This document shows positions 2,364-59,882 of a DNA stretch of 64,000 bases, in pieces. The translations under genes were made by a program, and so were the position numbers. A model generated the notes under the pieces. That model ran no database searches, was not told the origin of the DNA, and saw only the letters and a list, made by a program, of their open reading frames with translations. Location: positions 1 through 64,000 of IMG/VR virus record IMGVR_UViG_3300037067_012889; one strand, given 5' to 3'. The number at the start of each line of letters is the position of its first letter. Within the stretch, counting starts at the first letter, position 1. This stretch comes from a virus. Taxonomy: Duplodnaviria; Caudoviricetes.

Positions 2364-3320
2364 ATGATTTTAAATCTACGAGTACGGCCGATAAATAACG
2401 CTAAACGTGAAATAATATTACCACGTGCAGCGAGAACTGTAATCAAGCAACAGCCCGCTGTTACTAAGGTATTGCGTGCAGCGATGCGTCCAAAGCCGGT
2501 GACACCGGTAAAGATGACACCTGCGGTCAATCGTCGAATGCCGGTTATGCCAAAGAGGGGTATCGCCGGAGCAGCTAAGCCGGTAGTTGCCAATTCGAAA
2601 CCCAAAAAACCGATCACGAAAATAATTACTCGTGATCCGCCAGAAGGTAGCACGAAAAAACTACGCGAGCTGCATAATACTTGTGTTGGTCGCATATTGG
2701 TTATCATCGGCAATGGCCCGAGTGTTTTGGAAGTCGATACAGCACGATTATCCGAAAATCCGCGTGTCGATGTTATGTCGATAAATAAACCAGACCTTCG
2801 AGTATGGCCCACAAAATACTGGTTGTTCTGTGATATTTCGCAGCTAAAAAGGCATAACGAGCTATGGGCTAGATATAATGGCTACATATTCAACTCAACC
2901 ATGATTAATGAATCTAGACCGGGAACAATCTTTGTAAAAAACATCCCTGGTTTTGGATTTAGTACCGACTTGGCAAGCGGATTCAATATCGGAAGATCGA
3001 GCGTCTATGCAGCAATGCAAGTAGCATTATGGTTAGGATATGATAAGATATATATTTTCGGTATTGATATGGGTGCTGTCACTGTCGATGGTAAAGAAAT
3101 GCTACACTTCTACGGTGTTAACTTAGATTGCACAGCAGATAGCCGTAAAAAAAGGTTCGCCGAAGAAGCCAAATATTACGAAGACGCAGCACGAACATTA
3201 CCTGAGGAAATTAGGAAAAGATTCTATTTTTGCAGTTCATATAATCGATTTAAATTCCTGGATTATTACAATAGGTTGGATCACCACGCAGCTCTAAAAA
3301 TGATTTGTGACAATGTGTAA
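2364..3320 (+). CDS. MAF/DUF115-like or sialyltransferase-related glycosyltransferase-fold protein with basic N-terminal extension
   Basis: IIGNGPS and ALWLGYDKIYIFGID motifs; about 95 aa K/R/P-rich leader. Confidence 0.65.
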   Translation: MILNLRVRPINNAKREIILPRAARTVIKQQPAVTKVLRAAMRPKPVTPVKMTPAVNRRMPVMPKRGIAGAAKPVVANSKPKKPITKIITRDPPEGSTKKLRELHNTCVGRILVIIGNGPSVLEVDTARLSENPRVDVMSINKPDLRVWPTKYWLFCDISQLKRHNELWARYNGYIFNSTMINESRPGTIFVKNIPGFGFSTDLASGFNIGRSSVYAAMQVALWLGYDKIYIFGIDMGAVTVDGKEMLHFYGVNLDCTADSRKKRFAEEAKYYEDAARTLPEEIRKRFYFCSSYNRFKFLDYYNRLDHHAALKMICDNV

Positions 3321-5830: not shown

Positions 5831-6346
5831 ATGAATCATGTAGGGTATGCTGAGATGGCATATGAGACGCACGATGTGGCATTAATCTGTCTTAACGGAC
5901 ATATTATTAACAGTTCATCTGAGCGTTGTCCAGCTAGAAATTCTTCATTTTGCACTATATGCGGTAAACCAACTATATCAAAGTGCCTATATTGTAATAC
6001 AAACATACGTGGCAGCACGACATACCATGGTAATGTAATTAAGAAACCGCGTCCCATCGGTGTCGCACCAGCCTATTGTGAACACTGCGGAGGAATCATG
6101 CCATGGACAGAAGGTAAATTAGAATCAGCCAAAGAAGCTATAGGCTGGTGCGAAGAGCTAGATGACAAAATAAAGGGTGAGTTGATCAAATCTCTGCCAG
6201 ATATTGCAAAGCAAACACCACGCACTAACTTAGCAGTTGCTCAATTTCAGAGAGCATTAAGAATTGTATTAGATTGTAAAGATTTACTAAAGACACTAAT
6301 CACAGATATAGCAGCGAAGGTCATAGCTGATAAAATCATATCGTAA
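5831..6346 (+). CDS. DUF2321-like zinc-binding protein
   Basis: ICLNGH, FCTICG..TISKC..C..NIRG, YCEHCG..MPWT, TPRT pattern. Confidence 0.75.
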   Translation: MNHVGYAEMAYETHDVALICLNGHIINSSSERCPARNSSFCTICGKPTISKCLYCNTNIRGSTTYHGNVIKKPRPIGVAPAYCEHCGGIMPWTEGKLESAKEAIGWCEELDDKIKGELIKSLPDIAKQTPRTNLAVAQFQRALRIVLDCKDLLKTLITDIAAKVIADKIIS

Positions 6347-7214
6347 TTTTATGTCTCGACTTACCAGACGATGCGTTTAATCTATCCAATTCACTTAACA
6401 ATATCTTAATCTTATCCCCAGTGTCTGAATCTAATCTATTGGTTCCAGGTGGCAATGAATGACGTAACATGGCTATTTTTAAAGCGATTTCTGCTTGCTC
6501 CCTTTTAAGTTGCAAATATGGTATGATTTTCGGCAATATCTCACGCTGTTTATCGGCCATCAGCCTAATGGCCCTAAGTGGCCTTTTATTACCTTTTCCG
6601 CCACCAGAACGTAAAGATCCAACTCCAAGCTGACCTCCCAAATAATCTATCGTTAGCAAATGCGCTAATGAGATTTTATATATTGGTTTTATGGAATGAC
6701 CACCAAGACCAAAACGTCCATTAATGATGGTCCCATCACCATCGGTCATACCGGCCAACCACGGCCAACTAAATATGTGTTCTCTAGGTTCTACATCATT
6801 TATTGCTTTCTTGCCGACTTGATTTAGCTGTCGAACTTTTTTGTAATATGAATGCCATAATTGTGATTCAGCTTCGGAATAAAAAGAATTCTGACCATTT
6901 TTGATATTCAGTGCTGCGAGAGCTAACTTAGCTTGTGGTTGTTTAGTATAAAGATATGGTATTAACTTCGGAAGCAGCAATCGCAATTGGCTACCAGTTA
7001 TTCGGACTGACAATTTTGATGGACGCGGTTGATAATGGCATTTAAGTATTTCACAAACCTTTGGTATGATGATGCTGTCTGTCGTTAGGATTTTGAGATA
7101 ACATCTTCGTATTTTACAACAATGACGTTTTCTTTCGGCCTTAGCATAAGTAAGTATAAAAGAGCCTTCCGCATCAATTACACCACACAACCATTGTATT
7201 TCGTGGTCAAACAT
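6336..7214 (-). mobile_element. free-standing double-motif LAGLIDADG homing endonuclease
   Basis: WLCGVIDAEGSF and WLAGMTDGDGTI; repeated PYLxxKxxQA; start 7214 (MFDHE) follows a minus-strand GTATTTAA at 7229-7236. Confidence 0.9.
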
Positions 7215-7254
7215 ATTATATGTTTGACTTAAATACACAATCAGGATTAAGCAC

Positions 7255-8472
7255 ATGAAAAGCCCATTTCATAAAAACAACACAGGCGGAATGGTAGTAG
7301 TTACGACAGATGGTGGTGCTGGCTCATCTGGTAAAGGTTCCCTCAATTCTTGGCTAGCCGACAAATATCCATTCCACCTGGCCACAAACAACTGGTGCAC
7401 GAATGCTGGCCACTATACCGAACTCGATAATGGGACAAGGATACTCGTCCAACATATACCATCAGCATTTATCAATAAAAACACACAGCTCTACATCAAT
7501 GCTGGTGCGGCGATCGATTTGAAGACGCTTTTTAATGAAGTCTCTAACTTGGAATCTTTGGGATTTCCAATCCGTGATCGTCTTACTATCCACCCGCTCG
7601 CCAATGTAATTACCGAAGAAAATAAACAATATGAACGTGAAACTATCAAGACCGGTAGCACGTTCAAAGGATGTGGTGCTGCTATCGCAGCGAAGGCTAT
7701 GCGATTGCCTCGACAGAAACTCGCCAGAGATTACGAAGAGTTACACGAGTTCTGCACGATTGCCGATTTAACAACAGAGTTGAATCGCCGCATAGCAAAA
7801 CAAGGTATGCGAGTTCTTGTTGAAGGATCACAAGGTGTCGATCTTGATCTTAACTTCGCCGAATATCCATATTGCACATCGCGACAAACACATCCGACAC
7901 AATTGGTCGCTGATGCTGGTCTTCCTGGTAGAGCCATCACGAACGTCGTTATTAATTTGCGCACGAATCCAATACGCATCAGTAATGAATCGGCCGCTAC
8001 TGGTGAACAGTGCTACACAGGCAATTATTGGGAAGCAAGAGAGATTGGATGGGAGGAAGTCGCAAAGCAGGCCGGATATGATAATTTCGATGAATTTGTC
8101 GAAGAGTACAGATATGCAATGATGACATCTGTCACCAAAAAAGTTAGACGAATCTTCGAATTCCCGACTGAGAGAGCCAAATATGTTAATGCTCTTGCTG
8201 GCGGTCTTCTCGAAGAAGGCAATGTTCTTTATAGCCTCAATTTCATCAATTTTGTCGATAGAACCGTCAAAGGCAAGACGACATACGAAGAGGTCTTCAC
8301 GCCCAAGGTCATTAATTGGTTGCGAATGCATCTGCAACCGGTGCTAGAAAACAATGGCAGGTATGTTGATCGTGTGAACGAAAGCTGTGGTGATTCGTCG
8401 GACATGTCGCAATTCTTCGGATTACACTGGGTCAGAACCGGACCGAAGCACAGCCAAATAGTCGAGCTATGA
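7255..8472 (+). CDS. purZ: N6-succino-2-amino-2'-deoxyadenylate synthase (PurZ)-like; adenylosuccinate synthetase family
   Basis: DGGAGSSGKG (Ser at the PurA catalytic Asp), NAGH, GSTFKGCG, VEGSQG, YPYCTSR, TSVTKKVRRIF, LNFINF (instead of PurA TKLD). Confidence 0.8.
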   Translation: MKSPFHKNNTGGMVVVTTDGGAGSSGKGSLNSWLADKYPFHLATNNWCTNAGHYTELDNGTRILVQHIPSAFINKNTQLYINAGAAIDLKTLFNEVSNLESLGFPIRDRLTIHPLANVITEENKQYERETIKTGSTFKGCGAAIAAKAMRLPRQKLARDYEELHEFCTIADLTTELNRRIAKQGMRVLVEGSQGVDLDLNFAEYPYCTSRQTHPTQLVADAGLPGRAITNVVINLRTNPIRISNESAATGEQCYTGNYWEAREIGWEEVAKQAGYDNFDEFVEEYRYAMMTSVTKKVRRIFEFPTERAKYVNALAGGLLEEGNVLYSLNFINFVDRTVKGKTTYEEVFTPKVINWLRMHLQPVLENNGRYVDRVNESCGDSSDMSQFFGLHWVRTGPKHSQIVEL

Positions 8473-16053: not shown

Positions 16054-16784
16054 TCTTTCAAATGTAAATCTGTAATTCGGCTACCACAATTACGACTATC
16101 GACCATTCTAGGCCAATTGCCTTCAACAAAATCGATATCTTGCATGCCGACTCGATCTTCGACCATGGGGCTAAATACTCTACCACTGCCCAAAACAGCG
16201 GCCCACCAACTAAAAGAAGAATTGGCACGCAGCAATATCTGTGCATTCATCAACAATGCAAAATCTTCCATAAAAGAAAGGCCAAATGACAACAAATCTT
16301 GCGATATTGTGCGTCTTCCTTCTTGGACCCAATTAACATTATTAACATCTAAGTTGTAATTTTTACATGCCGCAATGTAAGACGCCTCGCTAACTAAACA
16401 AAATATGTTACCGAGACCGACATAGTCGCCACGGCGCACATGGGCTGCAATAGGCAAATGGGTCGTAAATCTGTGCTTCCACTCGCTTCGTAATTGAAAC
16501 CATGTCCTTAATTTAGATCTAGACATAAAATTTATCGCTTCTTGAAATTGGAAATAACCATTAAGTATTATGTTCGTTCTGCCATTTGGGATTTCATCAA
16601 AGCCAGAATATGGTAAGTCGAGACTAAGTGATTTATTGGATAAAACAAATATTTTTTGTCCTATCCAGTCAGGGGTTAGCAGAGTTGCTCCATATGTTTC
16701 GGCATAAGCACGCGCAAATGCATATTGAAAAAGTTGGTTTCCGAATCCACCAATAAATTTTATACCGACGACGGAGTTTGTCAT
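16050..16784 (-). CDS. alpha-1,2-fucosyltransferase-like (GT11)
   Basis: GGFGNQLFQY, GYFQ, HVRRGDY, ANSSFSWWAA. Confidence 0.9.
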   Translation of the reverse strand: MTNSVVGIKFIGGFGNQLFQYAFARAYAETYGATLLTPDWIGQKIFVLSNKSLSLDLPYSGFDEIPNGRTNIILNGYFQFQEAINFMSRSKLRTWFQLRSEWKHRFTTHLPIAAHVRRGDYVGLGNIFCLVSEASYIAACKNYNLDVNNVNWVQEGRRTISQDLLSFGLSFMEDFALLMNAQILLRANSSFSWWAAVLGSGRVFSPMVEDRVGMQDIDFVEGNWPRMVDSRNCGSRITDLHLKD

Positions 16785-17610
16785 GCTTCAAATAGGGTTA
16801 TGTGATATTAATTTTGCGCACGTCTTTTCATCGAGTGGATGGAACTTGCCAAAACATTTTGAATGGTGTAGGACGACTCAACATAAGATTTGTTTTTTTA
16901 CCGATTATTGTCTACACGCGGCCACATCATCAAAATCGAAGCGAAAAATTGCATGGCTACTTGAGCCGCCAGCAGTTTACTCAGAGAGTTATGATTATGT
17001 CCGAAAACACATTGGCATTTTTGACTATGTCCTGACATACGATCGAACATTGATAGATAACAGCAAGGTATTGTATTATCCGTGCGGTGGCTGTTGGATA
17101 CCCGACATAGGAGATCAAAGAAGTCTACCATGTGCTGTAAACATCCACGAAAAGCGGCTTTTAGCTTCGATCATAGTATCAGATAAAAATCAAACTGACG
17201 GTCATCAATTACGGCACGCTATTGCTAAACGATATCAACAGTTATCTGCATTCGGTCCGAGCTATAAACATTTAGAATATAAAGAGAATGCTTTAATAGA
17301 TTTTATGTTTTCAATTGTTGTCGAGAATTCACGTTTCGATGACTACTTTACTGAAAAATTGATTGATTGTTTTGCAGTCGGTACTATCCCGATTTACTGG
17401 GGCACTAAAAATGTTGGCCAACACTTTAATACAAACGGCATGTTGACATTCAATGATCTGGACGATCTTGACAAAATAATGTCGCAGCTTACACCAGATC
17501 TATACTACAGTCGCCTACAACATATACAAGATAATTTTCAAAGGCATCGTCAATATCGCGTAGCAGAGGACTGGATATTCGAAAATTATCCTTATTTATT
17601 TAGTACGTGA
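16783..17610 (+). CDS. alpha-1,3-fucosyltransferase-like (GT10)
   Basis: FSIVVENS..DDYFTEKLIDCF..GTIPIYWG. Confidence 0.9.
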   Translation: MLQIGLCDINFAHVFSSSGWNLPKHFEWCRTTQHKICFFTDYCLHAATSSKSKRKIAWLLEPPAVYSESYDYVRKHIGIFDYVLTYDRTLIDNSKVLYYPCGGCWIPDIGDQRSLPCAVNIHEKRLLASIIVSDKNQTDGHQLRHAIAKRYQQLSAFGPSYKHLEYKENALIDFMFSIVVENSRFDDYFTEKLIDCFAVGTIPIYWGTKNVGQHFNTNGMLTFNDLDDLDKIMSQLTPDLYYSRLQHIQDNFQRHRQYRVAEDWIFENYPYLFST

Positions 17611-41503: not shown

Positions 41504-42388
41504 ATGAGCATAACAGTATCGATAATCGGCAGGAATGAAGAAGACAATATCAGTCGTTGTATCAAATCTGTATTGCCTATTGCCGATTTAGTTGTCTATG
41601 CCGACACTGGCAGCACAGATTCTACTGTAGGAATTGTAGAGTCTTTAGCTAATAAAACACATAAAATTACGATACGCCATATTACATTCGACGATTTCGC
41701 ACAAGCACGTAATGAAGCGAAGAAAGGCGTTCCTGGCGACTGGATCCTACAAATCGATGCCGACGAAACGCTAAACAATGCATCAAAATTGCATACACTT
41801 TGTGGGCCAGATGAGTTCAAAGAGGCATACCTATTTTCACAAGAGCATCTGATACTCGGCGGCAATAAGACGTCTGTCGTAATGCGCCTATTCAAAAACC
41901 GCGAGCATTATCAATATGTCGGCTGCATTCACGAGATGCCAGAAAACATCCAGGTCACTGGACCAGATAAAGCCATTGAGCCTTTTGCATTCATTCAAGG
42001 TATCTATTTTGCTCATTATGGCTGCGTCGATGAACAGTTACGACGCGCGAAAGTCTCAAATCGCAATCTCGAACTACTTATTAAAGATCTGCGTGTAAAT
42101 CCAGATAGATCATATAATAAGTATCTCATGATTCGAGATTACCTCAACATCTATAAATGGCGAACAGCGGCAAATGGCTTTCGATGCACATACAATTCAA
42201 TTGAACATCAACTACTTTGTGCAATTATCAGAGATCACGACCAATACAAGGATATCGTATTACCACGATATCAAGAGCTAGCTAGTGAAGTGTGTGCTAC
42301 GGCATATTCCCTATTAGCACAACAGGAAATGCAACTTATCGAGACTGATCTGCAACCGACTGCTCTATTATCTTTAGGATTGTCGTAA
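41504..42388 (+). CDS. glycosyltransferase family 2
   Basis: RNEE, DTGSTD, DFAQARN, IDADE, IHE, HYG. Confidence 0.9.
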   Translation: MSITVSIIGRNEEDNISRCIKSVLPIADLVVYADTGSTDSTVGIVESLANKTHKITIRHITFDDFAQARNEAKKGVPGDWILQIDADETLNNASKLHTLCGPDEFKEAYLFSQEHLILGGNKTSVVMRLFKNREHYQYVGCIHEMPENIQVTGPDKAIEPFAFIQGIYFAHYGCVDEQLRRAKVSNRNLELLIKDLRVNPDRSYNKYLMIRDYLNIYKWRTAANGFRCTYNSIEHQLLCAIIRDHDQYKDIVLPRYQELASEVCATAYSLLAQQEMQLIETDLQPTALLSLGLS

Positions 42389-56876: not shown

Positions 56877-59800
56877 CTACCACTCTTCATCGTCGTCATC
56901 TTCGCCGCCGATAGCGGGCACGTAATTAATTACGACTTCCTTGATTTTCTCGTAGTATTCGACTTCATTTGCCGTGCCATCATATCCATATGCACGTGCA
57001 CTGGAAAGCAATTTGTCGATTGTCCATCCATCGATATCGACGCCACGCTCGATGACATATTCAGAGATGACCCTGACCCAGCTAGGCCAAAGATTGCTTG
57101 GGACTTTTAAATCTTCCTTATAATCTTCCCATAATTCGCCATCGTCATCGATGTATTCTTCGAGGAATTTTATGTGTTGCTCTTCGTACCAGACTACTTT
57201 AATCGCTTCGTATACTTTATTTTCAATAGCACGAATTGGTTTCATCAATCTGCGCTTTTCTGTCCTAATCTTTTCAACCTTGCACTCTTCAATAGCAGCC
57301 AATGCCACGTTCTCATCAAAAACGATAAGCGCGTTATTTTTCCATTGCGGATTATTCAGATCCACTGAACGTCCGCTACAACACGATAGTTTGAAGCTCA
57401 AACCATCTTTTTTACACCACCTGATGTTGACGGTAGAATATTCAGGACCTTCAACACATCTGGTTAATAATTTTTTCGCCAGTGCTGCGTGATATTGCAA
57501 GAAATAGAGAGTAAGCCTTTCTTTCTCTTCTACTGTAATAGCAAGCGGCTTCATCCATATTCGACGTCCGTCTTTGCGTCTCCAATCAGTGAACGCCGAA
57601 CGATCATCTGCATCTGGTGCAATTGCTTTTTCCAATTCGGCCAACGCATATTCTGCGGCTTGCTTCCGCTCCATGTCGGTCAGATGTTCCTGTGGTCGTG
57701 CCCCGATGAGCCACTCACTCCATCGTGCGTGATTCCATATCAGCTGCCAGCTTTCATGACGCTTATCGACGACGGTCCATTCTTTCACAGACACCATGCG
57801 TACAAACACACCACAATCAAAATGGATGATGTTGGTGCCATCAGTTGATGCCAGCACGGACCCAAGTTGAGTATCGGCACACAACTTCCAAACTTCCTCC
57901 CTGGCCCAAATGTTTTCAGCATTCTCGCACCGTAACACTACGTAGCTCCGATCGGGTCGATAGAAGACGGCCATCGTTTTGTCGTCGCAAAGTTTGCCGA
58001 CAGCCTGCTCATGTGCTTCCGTCAAAGCTCCGTCATTTAGTAGCTTCCGACGACCGAATTCAACAACGATCATTCTCAATGCTTTCGAATCGTCAGACGT
58101 TAATGCACGGTGTTCTCGCGTCTTGAATTTCCACCATTTTATCAATGCATCAATGCTTCTCTCCGCCCTCGCAAATGAAACGTCGTGCTTTTTAGCAATT
58201 TCGCTAACAAGCAATTGGCGAAATGGTGCTTCTTCGGCTGCTTCTCTCTTTTTAATCGCCAATGCCGCCTTTAATAGCGGTATCATACTGAGATAGCGAT
58301 GACGATTCGTTCGCGACCTGATATAGAACTCAATGTCGGAGGCAGTAACGCTGTCGATATTGATGATGAAGTCGTCAGTTAAACAGATGCGATAACTCAC
58401 ACGTGGTCTATTAGCGTCCGCATAGTCAGATTGGTATAAGAATTTAAAGCTTCTTTCATCAATCTTTCTATCGAGAACATATATCTCATGGTCGTTCGGC
58501 CAGCTGGCCCATCTATTGCTCTTTCGGTCTTCCAAGCCATGCTGCCGAGAGTAAAAACTGTCGAACTCGCCAATGATTCTGCATCCTACTTCCAACTCAT
58601 TGTTCACATTGGCGAGCCAATCTTTATAACTCGGCCTTCCATTTCCAAGCAAGTTCTCAGCGTCATACAGTAACGTTATGTACTTCTGGCCATCCAGATT
58701 ACAGACGTTGATTTGCTCATTGATCGGCAATGGATGAAACACTTTTGTGCGATCGAGCAGACCCTGGATCAGAATCAATGCCGTATAAAATCGGCGTTTC
58801 TTCGCTTCGGCCCTGTCCATAGCCTGCATATACTTTGCAGACCCTGGGATTAATGGTTCTCGCTTCTGCTCGCGCGTATCCCAATCCGTGTGCGTTTCGT
58901 AGAAGAAGTGTTCGAACTCGTCTTTTCGTGGCAAAAACACTTCATCGACCCATAGCGTCGTATAGATTCGATATAAGTTGTCGCCATTACGAATAAGAAT
59001 GTAAAGGCACTTGTTCAGACGATTCAATTCACCGTTGACAAGCGGATTGTCGTCGTAAAACTTATCATTACGCCGAGGCTTGATTGCCACGACGCCTTTA
59101 GTTTCAGGCAACACCTGTTGCAGGTGAGATGGCTCACATATCCATCGATCGAATTCGGATATTTCTTTGAAATCGACACCGCCACGCTTGGCCATGTCTT
59201 CTGCAGCCGCACTTTCTTCATCCATGAATAACACTTGCTGCCTGATGACTATTTTCTCGTCATCGGGTGCTGGCTCACCTTTCGCCAATCGGATGATCTC
59301 TTCGTCCTGCCCCAAGTAAGCATTGATCATATAGATTGCTTCTTGGGCCATTTCGATTTGTCGAGTTAGAGCATCCGTTTTCGCTCTCAGGATCAATTCT
59401 TGCTCTTTAATCAGCGTCTGCAGAGCAGAATGCCGTTTTGCAATTTGATTCTTCGTAACAGCAAAAACGGTTTTTACTCTTTTCAGATTCTTAGCAGCCG
59501 TTGTTGGATTCGCACGGCTCGCCATTGCGATTAGATCTGTCCCGGTCGGCTGTTGTGATTCGACCGGATGTGCATCGTCAGCTAGCAATTTCGGTGTTGA
59601 AGCCGATTCGATAAGGTTGTCCTGACGATCGCCGACAGCATGCAGACTCGACATTAGGGCGACGAGTTCTCTTTGTCGTTCCTCGACCCCATCTGGGGCA
59701 TATTCGAAGTGGTCTAGAAATACTTCGAGCGTGAACGTCCAAGTACTGTCGCCCTTAATGAGCGTTACTTCGTCTCCTTGGACACCCGAAAGATACCACA

Positions 59801-59882
59801 GGCTACCGACTTCACATCGGCTACCATCACGATCCTCGGATTCATCGATACATTCAGTAAGTTTGTAATATCCTTGTTCCAT
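56877..59882 (-). CDS. large hypothetical protein (1001 aa) with N-terminal coiled coil
   Basis: Uninterrupted ORF; TGCTATAAC 5 nt upstream of the ATG. Confidence 0.85.
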   Translation of the reverse strand: MEQGYYKLTECIDESEDRDGSRCEVGSLWYLSGVQGDEVTLIKGDSTWTFTLEVFLDHFEYAPDGVEERQRELVALMSSLHAVGDRQDNLIESASTPKLLADDAHPVESQQPTGTDLIAMASRANPTTAAKNLKRVKTVFAVTKNQIAKRHSALQTLIKEQELILRAKTDALTRQIEMAQEAIYMINAYLGQDEEIIRLAKGEPAPDDEKIVIRQQVLFMDEESAAAEDMAKRGGVDFKEISEFDRWICEPSHLQQVLPETKGVVAIKPRRNDKFYDDNPLVNGELNRLNKCLYILIRNGDNLYRIYTTLWVDEVFLPRKDEFEHFFYETHTDWDTREQKREPLIPGSAKYMQAMDRAEAKKRRFYTALILIQGLLDRTKVFHPLPINEQINVCNLDGQKYITLLYDAENLLGNGRPSYKDWLANVNNELEVGCRIIGEFDSFYSRQHGLEDRKSNRWASWPNDHEIYVLDRKIDERSFKFLYQSDYADANRPRVSYRICLTDDFIINIDSVTASDIEFYIRSRTNRHRYLSMIPLLKAALAIKKREAAEEAPFRQLLVSEIAKKHDVSFARAERSIDALIKWWKFKTREHRALTSDDSKALRMIVVEFGRRKLLNDGALTEAHEQAVGKLCDDKTMAVFYRPDRSYVVLRCENAENIWAREEVWKLCADTQLGSVLASTDGTNIIHFDCGVFVRMVSVKEWTVVDKRHESWQLIWNHARWSEWLIGARPQEHLTDMERKQAAEYALAELEKAIAPDADDRSAFTDWRRKDGRRIWMKPLAITVEEKERLTLYFLQYHAALAKKLLTRCVEGPEYSTVNIRWCKKDGLSFKLSCCSGRSVDLNNPQWKNNALIVFDENVALAAIEECKVEKIRTEKRRLMKPIRAIENKVYEAIKVVWYEEQHIKFLEEYIDDDGELWEDYKEDLKVPSNLWPSWVRVISEYVIERGVDIDGWTIDKLLSSARAYGYDGTANEVEYYEKIKEVVINYVPAIGGEDDDDEEW

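Follow-up and report, generated by a model that had tools for sequence, protein, structure and literature searches.

A PurZ-type synthetase gene in a 364-kb phage genome and the case for 2-aminoadenine in its DNA

Does a phage with a very large genome make 2-aminoadenine (Z) for its own DNA, and if so, how would it deal with adenine? The question is raised by one open reading frame (ORF) at positions 7255-8472 of the window analyzed here, which is the first 64 kb of IMG/VR virus record IMGVR_UViG_3300037067_012889 (Duplodnaviria; Caudoviricetes), a record of 363,885 bp that CheckV estimates to be 100% complete. The original prediction, made from the letters of the window, took this ORF for a PurZ-type synthetase gene in a jumbo-type, T4-like phage with tRNAs, supposed that some or all of the adenine may be replaced by Z, and added that the characterized examples are much smaller. 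At 364 kb the jumbo label is apt and so is the remark on size, since the cultured phages that carry PurZ, sampled by taking 60 records at even intervals through the ranked list of 205 deposited matches, all have genomes of 38-83 kb. Chemically shown Z-DNA genomes are known from small siphoviruses and podoviruses only, and PurZ is always accompanied in them by DatZ and MazZ (or by DutZ and DmtZ) and often by a selective PolA. In this article I will argue that the best overall reading of the gene is an enzyme that makes dZ nucleotides for phage DNA, a reading that I favor with slightly better than even confidence.

The ORF starts with ATG, and the three motifs quoted in the prediction occur verbatim in its product (hereafter the query), with GSSGKG at residues 23-28, TSVTKKVRRIF at 290-300 and LNFINF at 328-333. 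The protein belongs to Pfam family PF00709 (Adenylsucc_synt; 2.3e-26, 93 bits with a cut-off of 27 bits), matches PHROG 1211, annotated '2-aminooxy adenylosuccinate synthetase' (2.8e-47), and among NCBIfam models scores best on the PurZ model NF038379 (1e-51, 176 bits), with 148 bits on the archaeal-type PurA model NF003295 and 107 bits on the PurA model TIGR00184. When it is aligned with Escherichia coli PurA, Ser24 falls at Asp13 (D14 if the initiator Met is counted) and LNFINF lies opposite T-K-L-D-V 331-335. The substitution is general among its relatives: in an alignment of 274 proteins, built from the top 120 homologues of a word-indexed search, the top 150 representatives out of 1.84 billion clusters and five reference proteins from phages, the Asp13 position is occupied by Ser in 258, Asp in two, Gly in one and Ile in one, the remaining 12 having a gap, and Ser24 is invariant, within GAGSSGKG, throughout the clade to which the query belongs (the query clade). 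A 2026 NAR survey (PMC12884076) likewise reported that, among phage proteins of the PurZ group, 100% have Ser at this position.

The substrate pocket was compared residue by residue. Using residue roles from the S-2L and phiVC8 structures (PMC8342488; metaGPA preprint), 23 substrate-pocket positions were mapped, and the query keeps about 20 of them. On the dGMP side it retains S24, G134, S135, R150, Y206, C207, T208, R241, I242, T291 and R298, of which G134, S135, R150, Y206, C207, T208, R241 and I242 are the counterparts of S-2L G130, S131, R146, Y203, C204, T205, R240 and V241; I242 replaces the Val that clashes with the ribose 2'-OH, and a bulky blocking residue is thus kept, while S24 and T291 preserve two of the three elements of the 2-amino pocket, the third, with Ala in place of phiVC8 F12, being the main exception in the map. 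On the ATP side N329, F330, N332, F333, G396 and P397 are retained (the references being N305, F306 and Q308 in S-2L, and N297, the aromatic residue at 309, G335 and P336 in phiVC8), and the position of N332 is where PurZ0, short PurA and E. coli PurA alike carry the Asp that specifies GTP. As the prediction had read from LNFINF, the NTP pocket is of the ATP type (N329, F330 and N332), and the Asp of the GTP type is absent.

Phylogeny, which the prediction had recommended as a check, places the query in the same company. Trees were built with FastTree and with IQ-TREE (LG+G4, 67 rows, a 'quick' run with SH-aLRT values only and no bootstraps) from alignments made with the faster MAFFT modes, and the Asp-type outgroups were E. 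coli PurA, the second PurA-like gene of the window and a Rhizobium plasmid enzyme (NF003295, 444 bits) that served as the archaeal-type proxy. In both trees the Asp-type proteins fall outside the Ser-type group, whose support in IQ-TREE is 96, and PurZ0 (Ghobes-like, with Dut and PolA neighbors) branches near the base of that group. An ATP-type clade (support 99) excludes PurZ0 and contains the query clade. The latter, with its P-loop GAGSSGKG, has a support of 100 and, together with a clade of NUDIX fusions from gut metagenomes, is sister (support 95) to the PurZ clade of phiVC8, PMBT28 and S-2L. The query hence groups with PurZ and not with archaeal-type PurA, insofar as the latter is represented by its bacterial proxy, which lies outside the Ser-type group. 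By phylogeny, pocket residues and profile scores the protein is PurZ-type, neither PurA-type nor PurZ0-type, and it probably has PurZ activity.

The NUDIX-PurZ-like fusions are worth describing in their own right, as they form a large clade (L029-L051, P0103-P0119) of proteins of about 510 amino acids (aa), with the P-loop QAGSCGKG and the motif LNFAQY, on contigs of metagenome-assembled genomes (MAGs) of gut Clostridia, Tenericutes and Saccharibacteria and on a 135-kb contig; their neighbors include further NUDIX, NT5C, His_Phos and dUTPase_2/MazG-like genes. Starting from the 'PurA' of Bacillus phage vB_BpsS-140, a homologue search returned Ser-type proteins alone, and a scan of genome contigs returned gut-MAG Ser-type proteins alone.

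Other members of the query clade add genomic context. A 213.6-kb contig found in a separate search (L143, Logan SRR26324619) encodes a PurZ-like protein of the query clade with 49% identity and, within 8 kb of it, both a PurB-like lyase and a DatZ-like HD hydrolase (E 9e-19 with my own DatZ hidden Markov model (HMM), 2.6e-12 with PF12917); these neighbors tie the query clade to the Z pathway. A DHH phosphoesterase gene lies near its PurZ too, and this jumbo-size contig, unlike the genome studied here, represents a large phage that does have the classical dATPase. As a side observation, PurZ sits directly between a dCMP-deaminase gene and a DnaE-type polymerase gene in two other clade members (L145:9353-14560 and L027:8923-11146), the deaminase being fused to an AAA_18 kinase-like domain in one of these cases, and the arrangement recalls the adjacency of PurZ and DpoZ in small Z phages.

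What kind of phage carries the gene? The 364-kb genome codes for a Gp23-type (T4-type) major capsid protein (260 bits), a tail sheath and ribonucleotide reductase, and five tRNAs lie in the window. The prediction had also advised inspecting the DNA polymerase, and a DnaE-type Pol III alpha (genome 320739-323549) proved to be the sole detectable replicase, with no PolB in the complete genome; because of this, the term T4-like is true of the virion genes (capsid and sheath) and not of replication. Megablast at the nucleotide level gave zero matches to deposited phages. One ARAGORN call, a 95-nt tRNA-Phe(GAA) at 57858-57952 on the minus strand of the window, lies within a 1001-aa ORF (56877-59882) on the same strand; the call could be spurious, the tRNA could contain an intron, or the ORF could be over-long.

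The immediate neighborhood of the gene is set out in Table 1. In three close relatives, with PurZ 81-93% identical and contigs of 234-388 kb (L056-L058), the order MptE-like gene, 215-aa gene (candidate nucleoside-deoxyribosyltransferase-like, hereafter NDT-like), 233-aa gene (weakly deoxyribose-5-phosphate-aldolase-like, hereafter DERA-like), PurZ, 270-aa gene is kept, and the first three of these form a module upstream of PurZ that the prediction does not mention. The DUF2321 gene has no counterpart in these relatives, and the LAGLIDADG endonuclease, found in L056 and absent from L057 and L058, is outside the pathway. Of 113 loci that carry a PurZ-like gene of the Ser type, 15 have the DERA-like gene; at all 15 it adjoins an NDT-like gene (one of two types), and at 13 an MptE-like gene is also present. 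DatZ occurs at none of these 15 module loci and the DERA-like gene at none of 31 DatZ loci, a mutual exclusion with a Fisher p of 0.01 computed on non-independent loci with near-duplicates included. The module also adjoins PurZ of three different subclades. Its linkage to PurZ is solid, and its avoidance of DatZ suggests a dedicated DatZ substitute, for which the NDT-like and DERA-like genes are the best candidates as parts of another adenine-exclusion route.

The individual assignments differ in firmness. PF01973 matches five of six members of the MptE-like family (best 1.2e-7), and there is a weak match to CstII (E 0.009). The family alignment of the 215-aa protein has invariant G134, E138, G140 and A142 in a motif G-T/S-x-x-E-x-G-x-A, the form in which the NDT/N-glycosidase superfamily, with its Rossmann-like fold, carries a catalytic Glu. 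On this motif a PDB profile search places weak matches to the CMP N-glycosidase MilB (4jen, E 0.32) and to BlsM (5vto, E 0.65), and hhalign of the family with Ghobes DmtZ gives E 0.11; the protein has no Pfam match, PF05014 not being detected, and because the profile matches are weak its assignment as an NDT or N-glycosidase stays tentative. For the 233-aa protein, which has no sequence-level match, Foldseek with the AF2 model places many DERA structures on top (E ~1e-4, TM 0.50-0.55), and Lys188, invariant in a PIK-x-x-G strand, is a candidate for the Schiff-base Lys of a class I aldolase. The start of the 270-aa gene overlaps the PurZ stop codon, and this gene follows PurZ directly only in the three close relatives; its product matches PF01261 at 8e-5, below the cut-off, and its AF2 model (pLDDT 69) matches 4ovx in Foldseek at 1e-8 (TM 0.65-0.73). 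PDB sequence-profile searches with both TIM-barrel neighbors gave noise.

Table 1. Positions of the genes discussed, in the window unless another sequence is named
Feature	Position	Strand	Evidence
PurZ-type (Ser-type, ATP-pocket) succino-2-amino-deoxyadenylate synthase homologue, 405 aa	7255-8472	+	family matches, pocket map, trees
MptE-like (DUF115/CstII-like nucleotide-binding) protein, 318 aa, first module gene	2364-3320	+	PF01973
Zn-ribbon and candidate NDT/nucleotide N-glycosidase-like domain, 215 aa	3328-3975	+	motif GTNFEFGIA
TIM barrel, weak DERA/DeoC-like fold, 233 aa	4569-5270	+	AF2 pLDDT 69, Foldseek
DUF2321 zinc-ribbon protein, variable insertion between module and PurZ	5831-6346	+	PF10083 5e-37
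LAGLIDADG-type homing endonuclease, variable insertion abutting PurZ start	6336-7256	-	PF00961 weak; PHROG 5046 1e-21
Xylose-isomerase-like TIM barrel (ketose 3-epimerase/AP-endonuclease-2 fold), 270 aa	8469-9281	+	AF2, Foldseek
Second PurA-like gene, 401 aa	46253-47458	+	PF00709 2.5e-48
dUTPase-family paralogue, first of two	genome 170557-171063	+	all five dUTPase motifs
dUTPase-family paralogue, second of two	genome 348531-348965	-	all five dUTPase motifs
PurB-like lyase of L143	L143 695-1813
DHH phosphoesterase of L143	L143 8001-9110
DatZ-like HD hydrolase of L143	L143 14590-15186
13 further large PurZ-bearing records (107-395 kb)	L056-L058, L069, L073, L086, L091, L092, L095, L104, L117, L119, L129

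How, then, would the pathway run? The PurZ-type enzyme would convert dGMP, Asp and ATP (or dATP) into N6-succino-2-amino-deoxyadenylate (dSMP), host adenylosuccinate lyase (PurB) and host kinases would carry dSMP on to dZTP, and the DnaE-type replicase would place Z opposite T to give virion DNA with 2-aminoadenine; most polymerases do not tell A and Z apart (PMC8342488). Whether Z makes up a substantial part of virion DNA I regard as an evenly balanced matter. Adenine might meanwhile be removed, at least in part, by the N-glycosidase-like protein of the module, which would break dAMP down to adenine and deoxyribose-5-phosphate in analogy to DmtZ, the NDT-like enzyme that hydrolyses dAMP in PurZ0 phages (PMC12884076), while the DERA-like protein would cleave the deoxyribose-5-phosphate and so make the removal irreversible. 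The dAMP or dADP could come from the dUTPase-like genes, the one NUDIX gene of the 364-kb genome, the MptE-like protein or the use of dATP by PurZ itself; one of the two dUTPase-like paralogues might be specific for purine dNTPs, as DutZ is, the motifs not separating DutZ from ordinary Dut as DutZ-type proteins also have all five. That the module provides a new adenine-exclusion route is a tentative idea that I hold to be rather doubtful, and the same applies to the bolder proposal that jumbo phages with family-C (DnaE-type) replicases have largely or fully Z-substituted genomes from which adenine is excluded by this undescribed combination of an N-glycosidase acting on dAMP and a DERA-like aldolase acting on deoxyribose-5-phosphate, with the MptE-like protein perhaps feeding this route, which would be possible and yet somewhat unlikely.

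A number of observations weigh against dZ synthesis for phage DNA and have to be set beside it. The 176 bits on NF038379 are below the curated cut-off of 300, which phiVC8 (397 bits) and Ghobes (346 bits) exceed, and the best raw PDB match is Pyrococcus horikoshii PurA (5e-30, 108 bits), above which the solved PurZ/PurZ0 structures, at 84-99 bits, do not rise. In the pocket, phiVC8 F12, one of the three residues around the 2-amino group, corresponds to Ala22 throughout the query clade (P0096, a clade member linked to DatZ, has Ser there and likewise no aromatic residue), and S-2L T53 corresponds to Tyr54. The tree holds the bacterial NF003295 proxy in place of a genuine archaeal PurA, and the module assignments are weak for both the NDT-like protein (E 0.1-0.65) and the DERA-like protein (TM ~0.53, pLDDT 69). 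In classical Z phages datZ, mazZ and purZ stay together (PMC8342488), and in PurZ0 phages dutZ and dmtZ are kept (PMC12884076); the complete genome here has no DatZ (YfbR-like; by tblastn, my own HMM, PF12917 and PF13023/HD_3), no HD domain (PF01966) anywhere, no MazZ/DUF550 (PF04447) and no real MazG either, no PurB, no Pfam-detectable NDT and no PolA/DpoZ homologue (by tblastn and HMM). These absences are meaningful because the same HMMs find DatZ, DpoZ, DUF550 or Dut beside PurZ in most small IMG/VR contigs, and those for DatZ and MazZ find partner genes beside PurZ in 31 other loci. If dATP is not removed and the polymerase is not selective, one would expect substitution to be partial only.

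This last point leads directly to the possibility that PurZ is active and adenine is simply not excluded, the outcome being hybrid DNA with minor Z, or dZTP and dSMP that mainly disturb host nucleotide pools or defenses. The missing DatZ, MazZ and DpoZ speak for it, as do 14 large IMG/VR records with Ser-type PurZ-like genes (107-395 kb, eight with a completeness of 90% or more, and several with PurZ nested in the classical clade), none of which has HD_3 or PF04447 above cut-off; moreover, a full Z-cluster in E. coli converts about 4-12% of adenine (PMC8342488), and the NDT-like and DERA-like proteins have no more than putative roles. However, DatZ and the PurZ-linked module exclude each other, as would suit a dedicated substitute, S-2L PurZ can itself consume dATP (PMC8342488), a DatZ-like gene is present in one clade relative (L143), and the two dUTPase-like genes and the NUDIX gene could supply pyrophosphatase activity. 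On balance I consider this outcome unlikely.

The remaining explanations concern the enzyme itself. A Ser-type enzyme could act on another purine nucleotide, such as GMP, a 7-deazapurine or a modified guanine, and yield, together with the sugar-acting barrels, a product for DNA other than dZ. Ala at the phiVC8 F12 position would widen the pocket, PurZ is flanked by two sugar-type TIM barrels, short PurA-type enzymes work in 7-deazapurine clusters (on a Rhizobium plasmid with folE, PurA, purB, queE, IMPDH, nitrile hydratase and queC), and Ser-type relatives occur in settings that are not phage-like (Agrobacterium and Burkholderia plasmids have them as AAA_18 fusions with DUF7002, gut MAGs as fusions to NUDIX). 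Yet all the other dGMP-pocket residues are kept, including T291 and the 2'-OH-blocking I242, the enzyme of the 7-deazapurine cluster is Asp-type and outside the Ser group, and the scanned window proteins include no 7-deazaguanine genes (no whole-genome search aimed at them was made); I would call another substrate quite improbable. More improbable by far is that the gene codes for an ordinary PurA, an auxiliary enzyme raising the supply of AMP or dATP from IMP. Homologues are indeed annotated 'adenylosuccinate synthase' in source databases and purine-metabolism genes are common in large phages (a SAICAR synthase gene lies near one clade member), but the catalytic Asp13 has become Ser and the GTP-specifying Asp has become Asn (TKLD to NFIN), the scores are far under the PurA equivalog cut-offs (148 bits versus 368 for NF003295 and 107 versus 395 for TIGR00184), the protein is nested in a Ser-type clade, and the window has a separate, Asp-type PurA-like gene. 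A PurZ that supplies dZ for phage DNA continues to be the reading that I prefer.

That second PF00709 gene was considered as a part of the PurZ finding and rejected. Its product keeps the Asp (GFGDEAKG), has LSCLDH at the position of PurA LTKLDV and resembles bacterial PurA most (E. coli, 1e-27); the gene comes after a protein-kinase-like gene and belongs to a different module. Elsewhere in the window there are two glycosyltransferase genes, at 16783-17610 and 41504-42388, which are GT10 fucosyltransferase-like and GT2, and genes of a similar kind (GT2 and GT11) lie near PurZ in one relative of the query clade. On bacterial plasmids, an AAA_18 kinase-like domain is fused to a Ser-type, PurZ0-like domain with a GTP motif (LTFADY) in Agrobacterium rubi (L137:3449-5741) and Burkholderia thailandensis (L138:3431-5774), followed by a DUF7002 protein and with UvrD and PDDEXK genes nearby; PADLOC gave no match for this fusion, for PurZ or for the neighbors of PurZ. 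On Rhizobium leguminosarum plasmid pCC283b_4 (L139), the short Asp-type PurA used above as a proxy is clustered with folE, purB, queE, IMP dehydrogenase, nitrile hydratase and queC, in what looks like a pathway for a 7-deazapurine nucleoside of the toyocamycin/sangivamycin type.

Why would Z in such a phage matter? The papers covered by a full-text literature search contain no link between PurZ and jumbo phages, and neither BpsS-140 nor jumbo phages nor Myoviridae come up in the supplement text of the survey (PMC12884076). More than 2000 viruses have been predicted by PurZ homology to harbor dZ-DNA, mostly without proof (PMC13128860). Z-containing DNA in giant phages is likely and, chemically, unproven. 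If the reading is true, the modification would reach a genome size and a replication machinery that are both very different, a family-C polymerase would have to copy Z:T pairs across hundreds of kilobases, and there would be a second, unrelated way of keeping adenine out of DNA, whose enzymes would be useful for producing Z-DNA in vitro or in cells. It would also concern metagenomics, where restriction-based and kinetic methods would handle Z contigs unlike canonical DNA.

It is instructive to place the query among the systems that are already known. Short archaeal-type PurA (NF003295; P. horikoshii, PDB 5K7X/2D7U) shares its short architecture, which is thought to be ancestral to PurZ, and differs in that Asp13 and the Asp that specifies GTP are kept, as is Gly at the position of T262. 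The PurZ0 pathway of Ghobes and Wayne (PurZ0 with DutZ and DmtZ; PDB 7VF6; PMC12884076) likewise relies on a Ser-type enzyme, and its helper logic, with an NDT-like enzyme that destroys dAMP and pyrophosphatases of the dUTPase family, is perhaps analogous to what the present genome could achieve with its own two dUTPase-like genes. However, PurZ0 has the Asp-containing LSFADQ or TFADY where the query has the ATP-type LNFINF, and the query branches outside the PurZ0 clade; no dUTPase-like or DmtZ-like gene lies beside the query PurZ, the two dUTPase-like genes being distant, the homology of the NDT-like protein to DmtZ is below significance, and that survey describes no DERA-like partner in PurZ0 phages. 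The closest cultured-phage protein is the 'PurA' of vB_BpsS-140 (MH884512), which is 37% identical, Ser-type, has LNFANY and falls in the same ATP-type clade; like the query genome, that phage has no DatZ or DpoZ near the gene, and it differs in its 55-kb, siphovirus-size genome, its subclade and its neighbors (RecA, helicase, primase, adk and dut). Finally, with the classical PurZ of phiVC8, PMBT28 and S-2L the query shares the fold and family, Ser in place of Asp13, the TVTKKVRR loop, the dGMP pocket and the ATP pocket (N-F-x-N-aromatic, G-P), and departs from it in its 28-31% identity, in the model score and the Ala discussed above and in two insertions at about residues 274-290 and 370-390. 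Unlike the classical Z phages, its phage combines a far larger genome with a DnaE replicase, and where DatZ, MazZ and DpoZ stand in those phages it carries the module of MptE-like, NDT-like and DERA-like genes.

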